DNA from: a virus
Taxonomy: Duplodnaviria; Heunggongvirae; Uroviricota; Caudoviricetes
Virus record (IMG/VR): IMGVR_UViG_2531839481_000004
Location: 1 to 34,202 of that record
Reading direction: 5' to 3' (one strand)
Length of the DNA stretch: 34,202 bases
Part shown: positions 9,991 to 34,202 of the stretch, in pieces
Position numbering within the stretch: the stretch's first letter is position 1
How the letters are laid out: each line of letters begins with the position of its first letter
Position numbers and translations under genes: made by a program
Notes under the pieces: model-generated
Database searches by the model: none
Seen by the model: only the letters and a program-made list of their open reading frames with translations
Told to the model about the DNA's origin: nothing

Positions 9991-10336
9991 TCTCTGCTCC
10001 TGTTGATACGGAAAGGGAAACAGGCACACCGTTATTACGCCGCCCGCTCAGCGCCACCACCATTGAACCGTCAAAATTGCTGTTGATGGTGATGGAATCC
10101 AGCGTCATCCGTGGCTCCCAGCGACTCAGCGCCACATACACTGCCGACATGACCTGCAGGCGTAATGCCGGATTTTGTGGCTGGTCTATCAGTGCCGACA
10201 GCAGGGAACCATATTCACGCCGAGCAATGCGGCTACCCTGCGGCGTCAGCAGAATGTCCCGCACCGACTGGCGCAGATGGTCAATATCAGTAATGACTTT
10301 GCCGCTGGTATTGTTCATCCCGCTATAAAGCGTCAT
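9977..10336 (-). CDS. baseplate protein gpW (gp25-like)
   Basis: 119 aa, resembles P2 gpW. Confidence 0.85.
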   Translation of the reverse strand: MTLYSGMNNTSGKVITDIDHLRQSVRDILLTPQGSRIARREYGSLLSALIDQPQNPALRLQVMSAVYVALSRWEPRMTLDSITINSNFDGSMVVALSGRRNNGVPVSLSVSTGAENGSD

Positions 10337-19770: not shown

Positions 19771-21435
19771 CTATAAATTGAATTTATGCATTCTTAACTC
19801 ATTCAATTTACTCTCTCTAGAAATCTTCATTAAAGCAGCCTTAGCTTTTATAGAAACAGATCTCGTTTTCTCATTTACATTACCAATACGACTAAATTTC
19901 AGACAAGTAGCAACGTGGGATGTTAAATGATTCCCATGCAAACTTTTAAAATAATGATAATAATCATCTTCAGTAGCGCTACTTAATACTTCTATATCAT
20001 CATCATTCCAGCCATTTTTTCCACTGAGCGCATCCAACACCTCACCTAAAGTGCGCTTGGGTGAATCAGTTAGATACACACCTTTAAATTTCTCAATGAT
20101 TTCTGCATCTTTGATTGGTCTAAAAAGATAAAAATTATCCAGATCAAATAACTCTATTTCACTTCGTCTTTCTTGAATATAATACGTAATCATCTCAGAT
20201 GCCTTTGTATCTTCTCCTAGTTCACGGAAGACCCCAACAAGGCTATCAAGATCATTAGGAGATACTTGAGTTACACAATCCATAAAGCACTTATAAAAAT
20301 GAGAAACAACTTCTTCTACATTATCATCAAAACTATTATGAAATAAATCCCATGCACTTCTAAATGAGTTTGACTTTTTATTTTCTAAAGCCTGTTTATT
20401 TATAATTTTTATTGCCTCATTAAACTCTGTCATATCTATATAACCATTCCTGACTAGCTTTGCTATTTTCCTATCCAGCTCATCAACCCTTGTAAAATTA
20501 TAGCTCAGTAAAATATCCTTCCATTTTTTTTCTTCTTCTGTTACATCCTTTTTGCCTATTGAGTAAATACTTTCCATAGATTCGAGGAAATCCAAAGAGG
20601 GAACATCCTTATCTGATTTAGAGCAATAATAGGCCCAATTCATTAATACAACCGTATGCAAAAATTGCATTTTAACTTCACTTTCGCACTCTTCAAAAGC
20701 TCGCCATGCATTTTCTACGTTTCGCTCTATTTTCTTTAAAACTCTAATATTTTTGATGCCTAACGAAATAGTATATTGTGCTAACGGCTTATGAAAATCC
20801 TTACTATTATCATATGCTATCTGTGCAGATTCACTGGGCGTAGGTGAAAAATGCAACTCAATGTCAATTACTTTTTCTTTAAACTTTTCATAATCAGCAA
20901 CTTCTTTAGTACCATCATTGAGTAAAAGTATAACCTTACATTTCTTTTGTTCTTTTAACAAAGAAATAAGACCTAATACATCTTTAAGTTCTAATGACGA
21001 TCCTTTACGCTCTAAATCATCTATGCAAATTAATGAATCTGACACAGACATAAATGACCATGCTTCTATTGCAGGAGCGGCAGACTTTATATACGGCAGC
21101 TCTTTCAATTTACTCCACGAACCTCGCCCCAATATTTCAAGCATACCTAATGTATTTTTTCTTAAACTATCTAGACTTGGCTCATGTCCTATGGAGTCTT
21201 TTGAAACTGCATTTTCAAAAATGGAATATTTTAATCTATCTAACGAAGATATACCGAAAAGAGAGACATAGGAATAATGCGAAGCAGAAATCATATTTTG
21301 ACACTTTGCTTCCAGAAGAAACTTATTCCAACTAAATGTCTTACCAACTCCCCACTCTCCTTTAATTGCCATAACCGAAGGGGCTGATTTAGAAACAAAG
21401 TTTAGAATTTGTTCTCGTACCAAGCTTAGCGACAT
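19771..21435 (-). CDS. KAP-type P-loop NTPase (554 aa), accessory cargo gene
   Basis: Walker A GEWGVGKT (aa 26-33, nt ~21337-21360), Walker B-like LICIDDLER, no obvious TM helices, AT-rich, ATG with AAGGAG SD. Confidence 0.7.
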   Translation of the reverse strand: MSLSLVREQILNFVSKSAPSVMAIKGEWGVGKTFSWNKFLLEAKCQNMISASHYSYVSLFGISSLDRLKYSIFENAVSKDSIGHEPSLDSLRKNTLGMLEILGRGSWSKLKELPYIKSAAPAIEAWSFMSVSDSLICIDDLERKGSSLELKDVLGLISLLKEQKKCKVILLLNDGTKEVADYEKFKEKVIDIELHFSPTPSESAQIAYDNSKDFHKPLAQYTISLGIKNIRVLKKIERNVENAWRAFEECESEVKMQFLHTVVLMNWAYYCSKSDKDVPSLDFLESMESIYSIGKKDVTEEEKKWKDILLSYNFTRVDELDRKIAKLVRNGYIDMTEFNEAIKIINKQALENKKSNSFRSAWDLFHNSFDDNVEEVVSHFYKCFMDCVTQVSPNDLDSLVGVFRELGEDTKASEMITYYIQERRSEIELFDLDNFYLFRPIKDAEIIEKFKGVYLTDSPKRTLGEVLDALSGKNGWNDDDIEVLSSATEDDYYHYFKSLHGNHLTSHVATCLKFSRIGNVNEKTRSVSIKAKAALMKISRESKLNELRMHKFNL

Positions 21436-21528
21436 AACTCACTCCTTGATTGCGAATGTTAATTATATATTTTACCAAAAATCTTAATCACCACCTATAG
21501 AAAGGTGAAAGATGGGTGCTGGCGCGCG

Positions 21529-21547
21529 CTCGTATCCCCGCCACGCC
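21529..21547 (-). other. candidate cos cohesive-end sequence
   Basis: minus strand GGCGTGGCGGGGATACGAG followed by CGCGCGC; first 13 nt identical to the remembered 186 cohesive end, orientation relative to Q as in P2. Confidence 0.45.
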
Positions 21548-21569
21548 TGCCCGCTTTATGTAGTGGTTT

Positions 21570-21672
21570 TCATGCACCTGCATGTTCTACGTAAAAGCCC
21601 GCTAGTTCTGGCGAGCCTTAGCAAAAACGATCCTTAAACGATCATGCGATTTCATGCAGCATAGTCATGCAC
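21570..21672. repeat. cluster of four TCATGC(A) motifs including the palindrome CATGCACCTGCATG
   Basis: copies at ~21570, 21642, 21652 and 21665; palindrome at 21571-21584. Confidence 0.3.
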
Positions 21673-21869
21673 TGTCTAAGAGAAGTGAAAGTCCGTATCT
21701 GAATGACCACTTGAGAAACGAAACATACAGACTTACAAAGATGAAGCTCTACTGTGAGCGAGGAACATACATAGTTGCTCTGTAATAGCCAAATTTTAAG
21801 CAGGAAATCTCTTTTTTATGACAAAACTATAAAGAAAAACAGACCGTTTCATCGCTCGATGAAAATATA

Positions 21870-23447
21870 CTACAATACTTTTCTCTCGATGGTATTTTTA
21901 ATGGTCAACATATCTTTAGGAATACTTTTTTTCCCCTCTATACGTATGGTAAACACAAAAAGAATAACGGCTGATCTCACAATTTTCATGAGTTGTAAGA
22001 GCTGTTTCTCAAACTTTTCTTTCTCAATAAACCTCACCTCATCAAAAAATCCATAAGAATTATATAAATCAACTAACATGTCTTTCTCGTGAATAACTAA
22101 CAGTTTATGTTCTAAATCATTCCTCCATTCTTTAAAAAAAGCAAGCTCACCATTTTTATCATTCAAATCCATAGCAATACTAAACAAACCCAGCAATCCT
22201 TTATTATTTATTTTGTTTATTTTAAGCTTTCTTTTTTCATCACTAATCCGCCAGAAGTTATGAAAGTATATATGTCCTCTATCTGGTTTTAAATCAAATA
22301 ATTGACACAGAGCAACTGCTATTTTATCCAAGATACCAAAGCAAGCTCTAAATGCAACCCTTAACTTCTCAACATTTTCATACAATATTTCTCCATTATA
22401 CAATTCAGAATAACATACCTCCGAATCCTCATCAAAAAACTCACTATCAACCTTATATTCAAAAAACATTTTTCGTGCTAAGGAATACTCAGCTTTAAGT
22501 CTATTTAACACCATTTCCATTGGCACTATAAAATCACCAAACACACCTTCCTCGGTGGTCGCAATAGTTATATTATCTTTAGATGACGCATAACAATTGC
22601 AATATAGCGAATGATCAGACAACATTAGATTATTATCTATACAAAACCTCTGGTAGTTTGATAAAGTATCATACTCCTCCTGCGTGAGCCTTTCATCTGT
22701 ACTTATATCCTCTATGCCATATACACATGATTCACTCAATATACTTTCGTTGTACTTTATTTTTCTTTGAAGAGCAACCTTCCATGAAGGAAAACATTTC
22801 CCTGACTTTATTGCACACTCATAACCTCGAATAACTTCTTTAATCATTTTATATGTATATGTTGTAGATAATTCATTAAGCAATTCTAATGCCTCAGATC
22901 TGTTTACCCACGCCTGAGGAATTGAGTTATCAATAGATATTGCTTGTTCATAATAATCCATTGATTCAGACATACGATATTGTTTTTTTAATACATTAGC
23001 TAGATTAACTATTAAATCAGGGGGCACCCATCCATCTTCTTGTGAAAGTTTAAACGCTTTCCAGTAATTATTTTTTACATCATTCAGCTTAATGAAACTA
23101 TCAATATCTGCATTGTCATTAGGATTAAAATCAAGAACTGCGCTCATTCCATTTGCCAAGTTATAGTAATATAAGGATTCTTTCATTATAGTCAGAAATT
23201 CATTTTTATTGTTTATAAAGATATTTAAGCCTTCCTCCGCTATATTTTTTACATTACTAAAATTTCCGATATCAATAAGATTTCCGGCCAAATTAGATAA
23301 TATAATTATTCTATTTTCTTTGATTGTATTTATCTCATCGATACCGTTAAGAATATCCTTTACATTTTTATAGGCAGAATCAAATGAACCTGCATTAATA
23401 AGATCATCTACGACCCCCATTTTTGAAACAACATAGTTGATATCCAT
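21870..23447 (-). CDS. 525-aa protein with helical-repeat N-terminal region and C-terminal HEPN-like domain (Rx4H motif WRNDLEHK), accessory cargo gene
   Basis: ATG with AGAGGA SD; strongly AT-rich; R442-x4-H447 motif (nt ~22107-22124); occupies the tin/old position between cos and A. Confidence 0.65.
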   Translation of the reverse strand: MDINYVVSKMGVVDDLINAGSFDSAYKNVKDILNGIDEINTIKENRIIILSNLAGNLIDIGNFSNVKNIAEEGLNIFINNKNEFLTIMKESLYYYNLANGMSAVLDFNPNDNADIDSFIKLNDVKNNYWKAFKLSQEDGWVPPDLIVNLANVLKKQYRMSESMDYYEQAISIDNSIPQAWVNRSEALELLNELSTTYTYKMIKEVIRGYECAIKSGKCFPSWKVALQRKIKYNESILSESCVYGIEDISTDERLTQEEYDTLSNYQRFCIDNNLMLSDHSLYCNCYASSKDNITIATTEEGVFGDFIVPMEMVLNRLKAEYSLARKMFFEYKVDSEFFDEDSEVCYSELYNGEILYENVEKLRVAFRACFGILDKIAVALCQLFDLKPDRGHIYFHNFWRISDEKRKLKINKINNKGLLGLFSIAMDLNDKNGELAFFKEWRNDLEHKLLVIHEKDMLVDLYNSYGFFDEVRFIEKEKFEKQLLQLMKIVRSAVILFVFTIRIEGKKSIPKDMLTIKNTIERKVL

Positions 23448-23688: not shown

Positions 23689-23725
23689 CAAAATAGTCCC
23701 CCATCAGAATGAATCCTCTTGGGGG
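23689..23725 (-). terminator. possible terminator after the DinI-like gene
   Basis: ccccc-N18-ggggg hairpin followed on the minus strand by actattttg. Confidence 0.3.
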
Positions 23726-23734
23726 CAACGTTTC

Positions 23735-23968
23735 TTAATGCAGCCAGCTGTCGTCTTCCCACACCTTCTGCATAATTTTCATCACTTGCTTCCTTTCTTC
23801 GTCCAGTTGCAGTCCGGTTAGTTCCACACCGTTAGAGCTACCTTTGCGAATGCGAATTACCGTTTTGGGATACAGGGGGCGCAGATTGCGGTAAAGCTCG
23901 GATTCAAGGGCGTCCAGGGTAGACTGGCTAATCTTCTGCTCTTTATCGATCATTATTTCAATGCGCAT
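23735..23968 (-). CDS. DinI-like protein (77 aa)
   Basis: MRIEIMIDK...LDALESEL...QKVWEDDSW resembles E. coli DinI; ATG with GAGGTGA SD. Confidence 0.75.
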   Translation of the reverse strand: MRIEIMIDKEQKISQSTLDALESELYRNLRPLYPKTVIRIRKGSSNGVELTGLQLDEERKQVMKIMQKVWEDDSWLH

Positions 23969-23978
23969 AAAAGTCACC

Positions 23979-24167
23979 TCAGCTGATGACATCCATTGAG
24001 CGGTTGTATTCGTGGGTTCTGATTTTTGCCATGAGTTCATCTGTTAGTTCAGAAACCCACTGCAAAGCCAGCCCCTTCTCTTCATCACTACACTCACTAG
24101 CCGCTACAAGCTTAAGAAAAAAATCAATGCGCTGGAGCTTCAAAGACTCCAAAAAATAGTCCTGCAT
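23979..24167 (-). CDS. small protein (62 aa) under a LexA box, tum-like SOS module
   Basis: ATG with AGGAGG SD 5 nt upstream; LexA box 44-59 bp upstream. Confidence 0.5.
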   Translation of the reverse strand: MQDYFLESLKLQRIDFFLKLVAASECSDEEKGLALQWVSELTDELMAKIRTHEYNRSMDVIS

Positions 24168-24210
24168 CTTTCCTCCTATGACACCACAAGCAATACTGTA
24201 TGCATATCCA

Positions 24211-24226
24211 CTGTTTATATTTACAG
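24211..24226. promoter_or_regulatory. LexA (SOS) box CTGT-N8-ACAG overlapping a promoter
   Basis: ctgtttatatttacag, close to the consensus CTGTATATATATACAG; minus-strand TATACT -10-like hexamer abuts and overlaps the box by 1 nt. Confidence 0.6.
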
Positions 24227-24320
24227 TATATAATAATCTTACTGATGTAAAACGTTTTTTTACGTTCATCAGCCTGATATGCCTGGTATTATTAAGAGCA
24301 CGAATTGTTAACCCGCGTAA

Positions 24321-26735
24321 TTAATACAGGTTTCGCCACTTATCATCTTCCTGCAAACGCTGGTTCCGATAGAAGATACGCAGGCCTGCTCCTGACGGAA
24401 TACTGCCGCCGCGAAGGAGTAAATCGACCTCTTTCTCGCTGCCATTAAATCCTCTGGACTTCAGTTCATAGACGAGCTGCTGTCGCTGATGGTCTGTAAT
24501 TCGCTGTTTGTAGTCTTTACGCCGTTTCGGTTTCACCAGGCGTAACCTTGCAGCCAGTTCCCTGCGCTCTTTTTTGCTCATACTGTGCAGGTAATCGTGC
24601 AACTCCTTGTCATCCATGCGGATAATGTCCGTTCTGGTGTCCCCATCAGCTGATTTATCTTTCTCCTGTTGGTTCAAATTTTCAGCAAGGGGACAGTTAT
24701 TGCCACGAGTCCAAGGGGCGCAAGCGCCCTGGTCGGCTGCCGCCTCCTGAACGTCAACGGCCTTACGAACCATTTTCCACTTCACGGCATGAGTGCAGAT
24801 TTTGCCCTCTGCAATGGGTGACCAGATGCCATAAATACGAATGCCGTGATCGCCATAGGCGGTCGGCTCTTCGTTGATTTCATAAGCGGTTCTGATGAGG
24901 TGATATTTACGGGGAACCAGTACGCCGCCCTGCTTCATGATGTAGGTGGCAAAACAACCAGCATCAGCTGCAGCCAGAATGGCATCAAGGCGCGGGTTAT
25001 CCAGTACCGGCGCACCTGCTTTTTTGTCACCCTGTTGCCTTGCCGCCTGACCAGCCAGCAATCGCAGTTCACGGTAAGCCTGACGCCCCGGAATGCCAAA
25101 GAAGCGGAATTGCTGAACACGATGCAGAGACGCCCAGGCATTAACGTATTCAGCGTTATCACGCAGAGATTTACCCGTTTCCTTGCTGATCTCGCCAGCC
25201 AGACCACGCCCGTCAATGTTCTTACTGATGTATTTCGCGATGTAGCTAGTCGGCGTTCCTTTGCGCGGGTTTATCAGCTCAGACTTAAAGCGTGGCCCCG
25301 TGTTATTACCCAGCTCCTCGCGGTCTTCACGGATAGCAAACTTACGCAACAATGCAGTAATGGCGCGGCGGTCTTTTTTGCGCATGAAACACAACAGGTG
25401 CCAGTGAACTGTGCCGTCATGATGCGGCTCAGCCACCCGCACGCCATACCAGCGCAACCCGGCTTTGTGCATCGCCTTACGAAATGCAGCAAACATGCCG
25501 ACCAGATAATCACTGCTTTGTCTTACCGTCGCATTTGTCCAGGTCGGGTTGGGCCTACCGTTATTTAGCGTGGAATGGAAACGTGACGGACAGGTGATGG
25601 TGTAGAAAACGGCGCAGTCACCGCGCATTTCCGCGATAAGCTCCAGACCTTTAACACAGGCCATCATCTCATTGCGGCGATGCGCAGGGTTGCTGCTGCT
25701 GGCGTTTACCACATCCTCCATGTCCAGCGTGTCGCCGTCTTCGTTCACCAGTTCATGAGAACGGAAAAACTCCAGCGACTTACGGCGCTGCTCACGTTTA
25801 TGCATCACGGCTTCATAGCTGACATAGGGAGATGCTTTTTTGCTGACCAGGCAAACAGCACGCAACTGCTCTTCCCGCCATTCGCAACGCATCTTCCACA
25901 ATTTCCGATACCACCAGTCGGCGCACAGCATACGCGCCAGCGACCCCGGAATGAGTTCATAGGGCACGGGTTTACGGCGGTTTCTTTTCCGGCGGAGTTG
26001 CTCAAACGCAGGCGGTATGACATCCAGTCGCAGGGTTTCCGCCGCCACCTTTTCCCATGTCTTGCGGATTTCTTCTGGCTTAACGTCATCGGTGGCATAC
26101 AAATCGCCACAAGCGGCATCAAGGCACATGCTCATATGCGCAGCTACCAGGGTGGACAGGCGTTTCACCTGATCCTGACTCATTTCAGGCAGGATCAGCA
26201 GACCGTCCAGCCCTTCATGGCTTGCCATAAAGCGAAAAGAAGTGGATAGCTGACTGTCGCGTACATGCTCCAGTCGTTCCAGACATGGCTTAATCGTCTC
26301 ACGCAAATAGCGGGAATAAGCCTTTGGCCTGCCCAGGCTGCTGAAGTATTCAATACGTTGCATCAGCGGCTTGCTGATATGGGAAGGCTGGGCGTTAACG
26401 TCCGCCAGAATGACCATGCCCGGATTAAAACGCTGCTGCTCATGCGCCAGCTTTGCCCGGCTAATGAGCTTATCCTGCTCCATTTCGCGCTGGACAGGAT
26501 CACGTGATTCATTAAAGAAATAACGCTCCCATACCTGATCACTCAGAGCCTCGCGGCGCAGTTGTTCCTGCTCGTTATCGGTAGCGTACAGAGTGATCAG
26601 GTTTGAAAGCGCAGAAACCGGCGCAACTTCCGCCGGGTCCAGATAAGGGTTAATGGCCTTTTTCGGGCTGTTCCATGAGAATGCTGCGGCGACCTCGTTA
26701 AAGCCGCTGCAGTTGTTCATATCAGCATGGCTCAT
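24321..26735 (-). CDS. replication initiation protein A (rolling-circle nickase, P2 gpA family)
   Basis: [13 protein letters not shown] and [13 protein letters not shown] motifs shared with P2 A. Confidence 0.9.
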
Positions 26736-30081: not shown

Positions 30082-30714
30082 ATGTTAAACATCAGAATGG
30101 GTTCCGATACGGGAGGTAAGGCAGCTATTGAGAGGCTGCTTGAGGCTTATGGATTCACAACTAAGCAGGCATTAAGCGAGCACCTGAATGTCTCAAAAAG
30201 TACTATGGCAAACAGAGTGTTACGTGACAGTTTTCCTGCTGACTGGATAATTCAGTGTGCACTAGAAACCGGTGTTTCGTTACTTTGGTTAGCCACTGGA
30301 CAGGGAAGCATGAAAGAAGGATACGAGCCTGAGAAAAGATCTCATAACGAGAACAAACAAGCAATTAAACCGTTATCCAAACTCATAACTCCATCTATTC
30401 CTAAAGGAACCTTGGAAAATGGACAACTCAGTATTGATGAAGAGATTTTCCTAGACCACAGCATATTACCTGCAGATTATGAAGAATCGATGTTCTTAGA
30501 AACCCCTACTGATTGTTATCTCATCGATAAATCAGTTAAACAAGTCAGCAATGGATTCTGGCTTATCAATATTGATGGAATGATTATTATTGCAAAAATC
30601 ATGCGGATTCCCGGCAATAAGATTGTAGTAAATCAAGATGAAGCGTCTTTCGAGTGCTCTGCTGATGATGTGGAAGTTATTGGGCGTGCAGTCAAAGTAA
30701 TAAAGAGTATCTAA
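30082..30714 (+). CDS. cI: 186-type CI immunity repressor
   Basis: 210 aa, N-terminal HTH, followed directly by int; GGAGA SD. Confidence 0.8.
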   Translation: MLNIRMGSDTGGKAAIERLLEAYGFTTKQALSEHLNVSKSTMANRVLRDSFPADWIIQCALETGVSLLWLATGQGSMKEGYEPEKRSHNENKQAIKPLSKLITPSIPKGTLENGQLSIDEEIFLDHSILPADYEESMFLETPTDCYLIDKSVKQVSNGFWLINIDGMIIIAKIMRIPGNKIVVNQDEASFECSADDVEVIGRAVKVIKSI

Positions 30715-31743: not shown

Positions 31744-32412
31744 ATGAATAGCGAACTAGAGTTACTTATAAAAATATTATTCTCTTCCCTATCTGCCATT
31801 ATATCCTTATTAGGGCTTAAAACAGGGTGGACTTATAAAAAAGACAAACTATTCACATCACGTAAAAACATTAGCGAATTTTCATATCAGATGTATAAAA
31901 GCAGTGAAGATCCGACCTTCAAAAAACTGGCGGAAGATTACGGCATTGCTGCATTAACCAAAGATAACACATTGACAAAAAAACAAAGATTAATATTACT
32001 CAACACAACAAACCCCGTTAGCGATATAGATGATTATTCCAAATGTCAAAGTCTAATTTCCATTACCACCCATAAAGAAATATTCGCATGGAATAAAAAA
32101 AGATATAAATACAGCATATATAGAAAATTAATAAAAATTATAACAACTCTAATTTACTTCATGGGCAGTCTCATCGTAGCACTTCCTTTCAGTTATTCTG
32201 TTGTAGTAAGTGCTAAGATGATGGAGAAGATAAACCATCTAACTACTTGGCAATACTTTGGTTTAAGCAGCTATTTTGTGGTATCGGGAGTAGCAATATG
32301 CTTTATCTGCCTAGATAAGCTCTCCAAGATTAAGATCGCCGAGAGATTAATCGTTTCAAATAGGCGTTTAGGCGACAAATGCAGTGGCGTCACTTTGGCG
32401 GCAGAAAGTTAA
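31744..32412 (+). CDS. AT-rich membrane protein (222 aa), lysogeny-expressed cargo gene
   Basis: ATG 10 bp after int stop with GAGG SD; three hydrophobic helices; lies between int and attR. Confidence 0.6.
   Translation: MNSELELLIKILFSSLSAIISLLGLKTGWTYKKDKLFTSRKNISEFSYQMYKSSEDPTFKKLAEDYGIAALTKDNTLTKKQRLILLNTTNPVSDIDDYSKCQSLISITTHKEIFAWNKKRYKYSIYRKLIKIITTLIYFMGSLIVALPFSYSVVVSAKMMEKINHLTTWQYFGLSSYFVVSGVAICFICLDKLSKIKIAERLIVSNRRLGDKCSGVTLAAES

Positions 32413-33125: not shown

Positions 33126-34202
<1,077 letters not shown>

Follow-up and report, generated by a model that had tools for sequence, protein, structure and literature searches.

A predicted LexA-controlled tumA/tumB operon of the Fels-2 type in an Escherichia coli prophage

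The question raised by this locus is whether two small adjacent genes behind a LexA-like box form the SOS induction switch of the prophage that carries them, and to which known type such a switch would belong. We analyzed a stretch of 34,202 nucleotides, hereafter referred to as the window, which comprises a complete 186/Fels-2-like prophage in E. coli. A preliminary description had proposed a tum-like two-cistron SOS module here, and this proposal appears well founded given the position after gpA, the DinI part, the profile of the first open reading frame (ORF1) and a LexA box found across the family. Considering the sequence features, the homologies, this family-wide box and the natural split observed here, we regard the locus as very probably the SOS operon of a Fels-2/186-like (Peduoviridae) prophage in its split tumA/tumB form, predicted to be repressed by LexA and to drive induction through an antirepressor.

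The prophage context is that of the 186 group. The gene for gpA, an 804-aa replication endonuclease, lies at 26735..24321 on the minus strand, and the module follows directly 3' on the same strand, with an intergenic region of 153 nt between the gpA stop codon and the first gene of the module. The repressor CI (30082..30714) contains PF07022 and PF16452 and matches the crystal structure of 186 CI (2FJR, E = 4.9e-27), and the prophage also carries a gene at the Apl position, CII and Fil in addition to gpA. The 881-bp region around the module recurs with 100% identity in the chromosome of a clinical E. coli, for which RefSeq gives the order CI, a Rha-family regulator (Apl position), CII, Fil, a DksA-like protein, Dam, the replication endonuclease, a 'hypothetical protein' and a 'DinI-like family protein', followed by cargo, portal and terminase. 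Scans for Rfam families and tRNAs gave no hits in the window.

Direct reading of the minus strand, on which all features of the module lie, gives a -35 hexamer TTTACA (24251..24246) located 17 nt 5' of a -10 hexamer TACTGT (24228..24223), which is at the same time the left arm of LexA box 1; an alternative -10, TATACT (24230..24225), has a spacer of 15 nt. LexA box 1, TACTGTAAATATAAACAGTG (24209..24228), contains the 16-nt core CTGTAAATATAAACAG at 24226..24211, which reads CTGTTTATATTTACAG on the plus strand, and re-reading thus recovered exactly the promoter-overlapping box that had been placed at 24211-24226. LexA box 2, CAGTGGATATGCATACAGTA (24194..24213), has the core GTGGATATGCATACAG at 24211..24196, with a degenerate left arm (GTGG in place of CTGT). 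The two cores have one base in common, which is a dual-operator layout. At the level of sequence, the predicted LexA operator overlaps the -10 of the operon promoter. A generic promoter scanner made no call at this promoter, because TACTGT fits TATAAT at only three of six positions.

Such a weak -10 would suit a different reading, in which an AT-rich palindrome resembles a LexA box by chance and the operon is either under CI control or constitutive. The bare pattern CTGT-N8-ACAG, which occurs only once in the 34.2-kb window (box 1), is likewise weak evidence, because at least one match was found in 33 of 100 shuffled windows. Given this chance frequency, we scored every 20-mer by a Lewis-type heterology index (HI), whose values are approximate, the matrix having been rebuilt from E. 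coli operators (compared with published values, lexA, umuDC and colE1 are lower by 1-2.5 units and recA is higher by 0.6). Box 1 ranked first in the whole window (HI 4.4) and box 2 second (HI 9.0), ahead of a third-best site at 12.9, so that the two best LexA-like 20-mers are adjacent at this very promoter. Moreover, the sequence matches the experimentally known dual operator of ColE1, its position over the -10 is identical to that in the annotated 186 promoter p95, and the box is kept before TumA genes with flanking DNA that looks dissimilar by eye. A chance palindrome is therefore very improbable in our judgement.

Comparison with related loci pointed in the same direction as the HI scan. 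Across 62 distinct upstream sequences of related viral contigs, TTTACA was invariant and box 1 almost invariant, while box 2 had nearly invariant half-sites around a central spacer that was the most variable stretch of the region, a pattern expected of a LexA site. A strong LexA box was also present 35-61 nt 5' of the start codon in all examined TumA relatives of 34-51% identity, as well as in 186 and PSP3; the flanking DNA of these divergent loci was judged dissimilar by eye rather than by alignment. The overlap between the -10 and the LexA box is annotated in 186 p95 (TTCACA-18-TACTGT, in which the -10 is again the left arm of the box and the spacer is 18 instead of 17) and is also present in PSP3 and in the divergent locus L089. 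These data provide good comparative evidence that LexA control is probably a defining feature of the TumA family.

The dual box sets the window and Fels-2 apart from the other family loci examined. Its layout resembles that of the ColE1 cea operator, in which two LexA boxes also overlap by one base and which, like a Klebsiella bacteriocin operator, can be aligned without gaps with the operator of the window and Fels-2. The proximal box CAGTGGTTATATGTACAGTATT is identical in Fels-2, ColE1 cea and this Klebsiella operator (22/22 positions between Fels-2 and ColE1 cea), and the window version keeps both half-sites. In contrast to the tum operator, that of ColE1 controls a bacteriocin and not an antirepressor, and the two show no relation in their flanks or promoter elements. 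The operator stretch is matched by more than 1000 plasmids, most of which are small and mobilizable, and the two that were inspected carry bacteriocin genes. Colicin dual boxes are bound by two LexA dimers, which results in very tight repression and expression in few cells (PMC2994835). By analogy, we infer that control of the tum operon may be similarly tight and late-firing.

Behind this operator lies the tumA-like gene (ORF1; 24167..23979, minus strand), which encodes a predicted antirepressor of 62 aa and is preceded by the Shine-Dalgarno sequence AGGAGG (24177..24172), 4 nt before the ATG and kept in related loci. The product is identical to STM2728 of Fels-2 at 61 of 62 residues (98%). 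Pairwise BLASTP detected no similarity of ORF1 to 186 Tum or to PSP3 TumA, and the relation to Tum is visible by profiles only: an HMM of 38 diverse family members matched residues 5-43 of 186 Tum with 33 bits, and hhalign of the family against 186 Tum gave a probability of 95.3% (E = 2.3e-8, residues 4-46). From these profile matches it follows that ORF1 and the N-terminal part of Tum, outside its DinI-like region, are homologous. Against PSP3 TumA, the family reached an hhalign probability of 10% (E = 0.003), which is not significant, with a shared C-x6-hALxhhx[DE]h motif aligned. The family comprises 484 close relatives and 86 clusters at 50% identity, almost all of 55-75 aa, and its divergent members share the start at M1; its conserved core is LQRIxLxxRLV..xC...DKELAxxWxAEL. 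ORF1 had no match in Pfam or PADLOC. Its AF2 model is a helical hairpin (helices 2-23 and 28-61, pLDDT 88), for which a Foldseek search of the PDB returned generic helical hairpins only, none at E <= 0.001.

The second gene, the tumB-like ORF2 (23968..23735, minus strand), encodes a 77-aa protein that we place in the DinI family on the basis of a Pfam match well above the gathering score (PF06183, E = 6.6e-23, 81.3 bits, cut-off 24.2). ORF2 is identical to STM2726.1 of Fels-2 at 77 of 77 residues, shares 78% identity with PSP3 TumB over 77/77 residues (E = 2e-47) and 41% with residues 71-145 of 186 Tum (E = 3e-24), and matches the structure of E. coli DinI (1GHH, E = 2.7e-6). An alignment of the module with 186 Tum had been suggested as a check in the preliminary description, and its outcome was mixed: the similarity is direct for ORF2, and for ORF1 it emerged from the profiles and not from BLASTP. 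The 62-aa frame with its AGGAGG and the 77-aa DinI-like frame with a Shine-Dalgarno of its own were both found on re-reading as first described.

The Shine-Dalgarno sequence of tumB, GAGGTGA (23980..23974, minus strand), is located 5 nt before its ATG and overlaps the tumA stop codon, and translational coupling between tumA and tumB is possible. This site is part of a hairpin, on its 3' arm; the fold is weak (-9 kcal/mol) and, at z -1.1, not significant. Downstream of tumB, a GC-rich hairpin with a U-rich tract (23689..23725, minus strand; -14.8 kcal/mol, z -1.1) is a weakly supported candidate for a leaky terminator, and a promoter and terminator scanner made no terminator call after tumB. 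We claim neither a terminator nor coupling, because the hand-folded hairpins were no better than shuffles (z about -1). The position of the hairpin after tumB is analogous to that of the partial terminator t95a in 186, and homology with most related phages stops at or just past the tumB stop codon.

Since 186 Tum is a single polypeptide of 146 aa containing both parts, and the two ORFs of the window are only 10 nt apart, the pair could in principle be a pseudogene or an artefact, produced when a frameshift or faulty assembly interrupted a fused tum gene; the preliminary description had likewise considered a frameshift in the assembly. The distribution of the layout refutes this idea, to which we give almost no credence. 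Of 5426 complete E. coli genomes, 1125 contain the same two genes in the same arrangement, which also occurs in Fels-2, in many Klebsiella and Salmonella phages (dozens in all) and in Yersinia phage records. In addition, ORF2 has its own Shine-Dalgarno and ATG; the relatives of ORF1 are standalone proteins, and no DinI fusion was seen among those inspected for length or sequence; and the conservation of its amino-acid sequence between genera points to selection acting on the short product. Some lineages even have no DinI gene at all, while 186 itself has an internal Shine-Dalgarno plus a GTG start from which a separate DinI part can be made. The two-cistron split is thus natural and is not an assembly error.

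Three tum architectures can be distinguished. The fused form is represented by 186 and by about 28 phage records that match it over the full length at 90% identity or more (tblastn of a phage collection); the split form is in frame in PSP3 and out of frame in Fels-2 and the window; and TumA occurs without a DinI gene in the loci L091 and L092. We used the tblastn counts and did not take a ratio of fused to split forms from a protein search with the 186 Tum N-terminus, because many of its returns were truncated or contig-end fragments.

The preliminary description had implied that a two-cistron layout is new, and this did not hold up. A passage of Lemire et al. 2011 (PMC3121763), citing Bunny et al. 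2002, describes tum as split by a stop codon in Fels-2 and PSP3, and the same passage quotes, second-hand, a personal communication that the upstream gene of PSP3 carries antirepressor activity. Furthermore, the PSP3 annotation lists tumA as 'similar to 5' end 186 tum; UV induction of prophage', followed by tumB. Because these descriptions and this annotation came earlier, we make no claim of novelty for the two-cistron tum, which is already known and ordinary. A literature search on TumA/TumB returned noise only.

With two ORFs in different reading frames and a gap between them, the locus is a tumA/tumB variant and not the fused Tum of 186 proper; more specifically, its sequence indicates that it belongs to the Fels-2 allele. 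It shares with Fels-2 an identical promoter and box 1, the 10-nt intercistronic spacing and the position after gpA. The spacer of box 2 differs (ATATGCAT versus TTATATGT), CI is only 60% identical, the downstream cargo is another one, and the host of Fels-2 is Salmonella Typhimurium LT2 whereas that of the window is E. coli. PSP3 is similar in having a two-cistron operon after gene A with a LexA box over the -10; however, its TumA is too divergent for a significant alignment, its cistrons stand in the same frame and are parted by a stop codon plus one codon, its LexA box is single and near consensus, and its CI has a duplicated HTH domain. The likeness to 186 extends to an antirepressor whose N-terminal region is homologous to TumA and whose C-terminal region is DinI-like, to the genomic position of the module after gpA and to the CI family. 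In 186, unlike here, both parts reside in one protein with internal restarts, the LexA box is single and orf97 follows inside the operon. Taken together, the sequence of the locus appears to contain every element of a 186-type SOS operon except the single-polypeptide form.

An arrangement of comparable logic is known from Gifsy-1/2/3, whose dinI-gfoA/gftA operons are controlled by LexA and pair a homologue of DinI with a small antirepressor, by which a non-cleavable repressor is inactivated (PMC3121763). There, the gene order is reversed and both the phage group and the repressor family are different. GfoA was considered as a homologue of the TumA family and rejected (hhalign probability 0.2%).

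The antirepressor Tum of 186 is under LexA control and keeps CI from binding (PMC3121763); according to this source and the 186 annotation, it prevents CI binding reversibly and without cleavage. Extending this knowledge of 186, together with that of PSP3 and Fels-2, to the window suggests how LexA binding, antirepression, the role of TumB and the part of CI that is targeted might fit together. In the lysogen, host LexA would occupy the two overlapping SOS boxes, cover the -10 and the start region of a sigma-70 promoter and keep the operon off. Upon DNA damage, active RecA would promote self-cleavage of LexA and the tum promoter would be derepressed. TumA would then bind the 186-type CI and stop it from binding its operators, with no cleavage of CI, and the release of CI would allow pR to fire, leading to Apl expression, excision and lytic growth. 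TumB would be expected to bind RecA filaments and to modulate the SOS signal, in an accessory role not essential to antirepression.

To examine CI as the putative target, we compared 80 viral contigs encoding a TumA with 98-100% identity to that of the window (100% in 78 of them). In these contigs, gpA, CII and TumB are mostly 93-100% identical as well (TumB down to 84% and gpA to 89% in a few), whereas CI falls into 18 clusters with pairwise identities of 33-76%. Relative to the CI of the window, the linker and C-terminal oligomerisation domain are 26-64% identical and the HTH domain 61-82%; in phages with a divergent TumA (186, PSP3, L089 and L091), the HTH domain is only 40-48% identical to it. 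The HTH domain is thus kept wherever TumA is identical, which fits a contact of TumA with the DNA-binding domain, and we infer that TumA may contact the conserved N-terminal HTH domain of CI. This target is offered as a hypothesis, because recombination breakpoints inside cI could give the same pattern.

The same comparison bears on a further alternative, according to which the operon is SOS-regulated but ORF1 is not an antirepressor, induction takes another route (e.g., CI cleavage) and both ORFs are SOS-modulating morons. An identical ORF1 beside CI proteins down to 38% identity to that of the window is unusual for a specific protein-protein inhibitor; ORF1 is also devoid of Pfam, PADLOC and structural matches, and it shows no significant similarity to the one split TumA for which activity has been reported, that of PSP3. 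Several observations nevertheless speak against this alternative, which we consider unlikely. ORF1 has profile-level homology to precisely the half of 186 Tum that DinI does not explain; it is strictly positioned after gpA, with a LexA box, in phages with a 186-type CI, even where DinI is missing; and the HTH domain of CI is conserved wherever TumA is identical. Fels-2, which bears these very alleles, moreover makes lexA-null mutations lethal according to the title of Bunny et al. 2002. We therefore retain the reading of ORF1 as a TumA-type antirepressor.

The interval between gpA and portal is a cargo hotspot of P2-like phages (Rousset et al. 2022, PMC9122126), and the tum module stands at the head of this hypervariable region: among 74 related contigs and the window, the cargo segment occurs in 58 unrelated versions, and 110 of 130 cargo ORFs point in the same direction as tum. 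In the window, the segment between tumB and portal measures 4 kb with a GC content of 30-35% and encodes two proteins, one of 525 aa with HEPN_LA2681 plus TPR, whose gene lies at 23447..21870, and the other a KAP-like P-loop NTPase of 554 aa that matches the PADLOC candidate PDC-S49. The cargo gene orf97 of 186 lies inside the SOS operon behind the partial terminator. By analogy with orf97, read-through past tumB could make co-oriented defence cargo, such as the HEPN_LA2681-TPR gene, SOS-inducible.

Two further ideas may be placed beside this one. First, the invariant TumA could act as a master key serving a swarm of Fels-2-like prophages with at least 18 CI types in which the HTH domain is kept, and a single SOS-induced TumA could cross-induce heterotypic co-resident prophages. 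Second, owing to the dual LexA operator, the switch could fire only late or under severe damage. We hold the combination of master-key TumA, late or severe-damage firing and read-through into cargo tentatively, and on balance lean somewhat against all three applying jointly. In the literature searched, which did not extend to Bunny et al. 2002, neither a dual colicin-like operator nor an invariant TumA with a variable CI was found.

These results leave the known principle of 186-type SOS induction unchanged. They offer modest, testable leads, namely the dual colicin-like operator, the invariant TumA alongside a variable CI and the fact that the operon comes first in the defence hotspot between gpA and portal. 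The 62-aa gene carries the label 'hypothetical protein' or, wrongly, 'levan regulatory protein' in more than 1000 E. coli genomes and in numerous phages of Klebsiella and Salmonella, and it can now be named as a TumA-type antirepressor. With this name, the prophages that carry it become predictable as SOS-inducible without CI cleavage, which may matter where antibiotics trigger prophage induction in clinical E. coli and Klebsiella.

A second LexA-like box was detected on the minus strand at 24194-24213, sharing one core base with the LexA box already reported at 24228..24209, and the two overlapping predicted sites would constitute a dual operator of the colicin type. The promoters of ColE1 cea and of a Klebsiella bacteriocin carry a proximal box identical at 22 of 22 positions to that of Fels-2, a Salmonella phage with a split tum. 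The dual-operator stretch also has matches in over 1000 plasmids, most of them small and mobilizable, and both of those inspected (n = 2) carried bacteriocin genes.

Many database entries give the predicted antirepressor gene tumA (ORF1) as 96 aa (or 84-101 aa) from an upstream ATG (23979-24269, minus strand), and some sources name its product "levan regulatory protein". Because all divergent family members begin at the MQDYF methionine, both the long calls and this name look like annotation errors; the longer versions, if true, would span the promoter and the LexA boxes. Distant TumA relatives were found after the replication endonuclease gene gpA and behind a strong LexA box in three loci (L091 and L092, both 10001-10207; L087, 535-744), with no DinI gene downstream; ogr and the portal gene come next. 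Many such members lacking a downstream DinI gene have an odd glycine-rich C-terminal tail (KNPQxGGxxxGxLQ), whereas the TumA of the window does not.

In phage 186, the DinI-like half of Tum (L001, 5293-5523) has its own AAGGAGG and an internal GTG start, so the fused tum gene already functions much as two cistrons do; the internally started product is annotated as truncated Tum, with the remark "modulates SOS induction". At the tumA-tumB junction, the last bases of tumA can fold back on the Shine-Dalgarno and start region of tumB in a small hairpin (23962-23996, minus strand; -9 kcal/mol), and this pairing is retained in Fels-2 although one codon has changed. The hairpin, which is no more stable than shuffled sequence (z = -1.1), suggests that translation of the two genes may be coupled.

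We further compared the repressor CI (30082-30714) across 80 viral contigs (L007-L086) and found that an identical 62-aa TumA is partnered with CI proteins of at least 18 clusters (33-76% pairwise identity). The hypervariable parts of these CI proteins are the linker and the C-terminal domain; the HTH domain retains 61-82% identity to that of the window. Several variants of ~310 aa have a duplicated HTH domain, as does the CI of PSP3, and the Apl-position gene beside CI is also swapped for another in most loci.

Immediately past the integrase gene lies a 222-aa ORF (31744-32412) with no Pfam match. The chromosomal flank (33225-34202) is recognised by the host gene csiD, which starts at 33225. 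Scans for tRNAs and Rfam elements found none anywhere in the 34,202-nt window. A cargo island of low GC content (30-35%; 19771-23447, minus strand) separates tumB from the portal gene. It codes for a 525-aa HEPN_LA2681 and TPR protein (23447..21870, minus) and for a KAP-like P-loop NTPase of 554 aa (21435..19771, minus) that matches the PADLOC candidate PDC-S49. The gpA-portal segment occurs in 58 unrelated versions among 74 related contigs and the window. This island is the already known gpA-portal defence hotspot, in which 85% of cargo ORFs share the orientation of the LexA-controlled operon.
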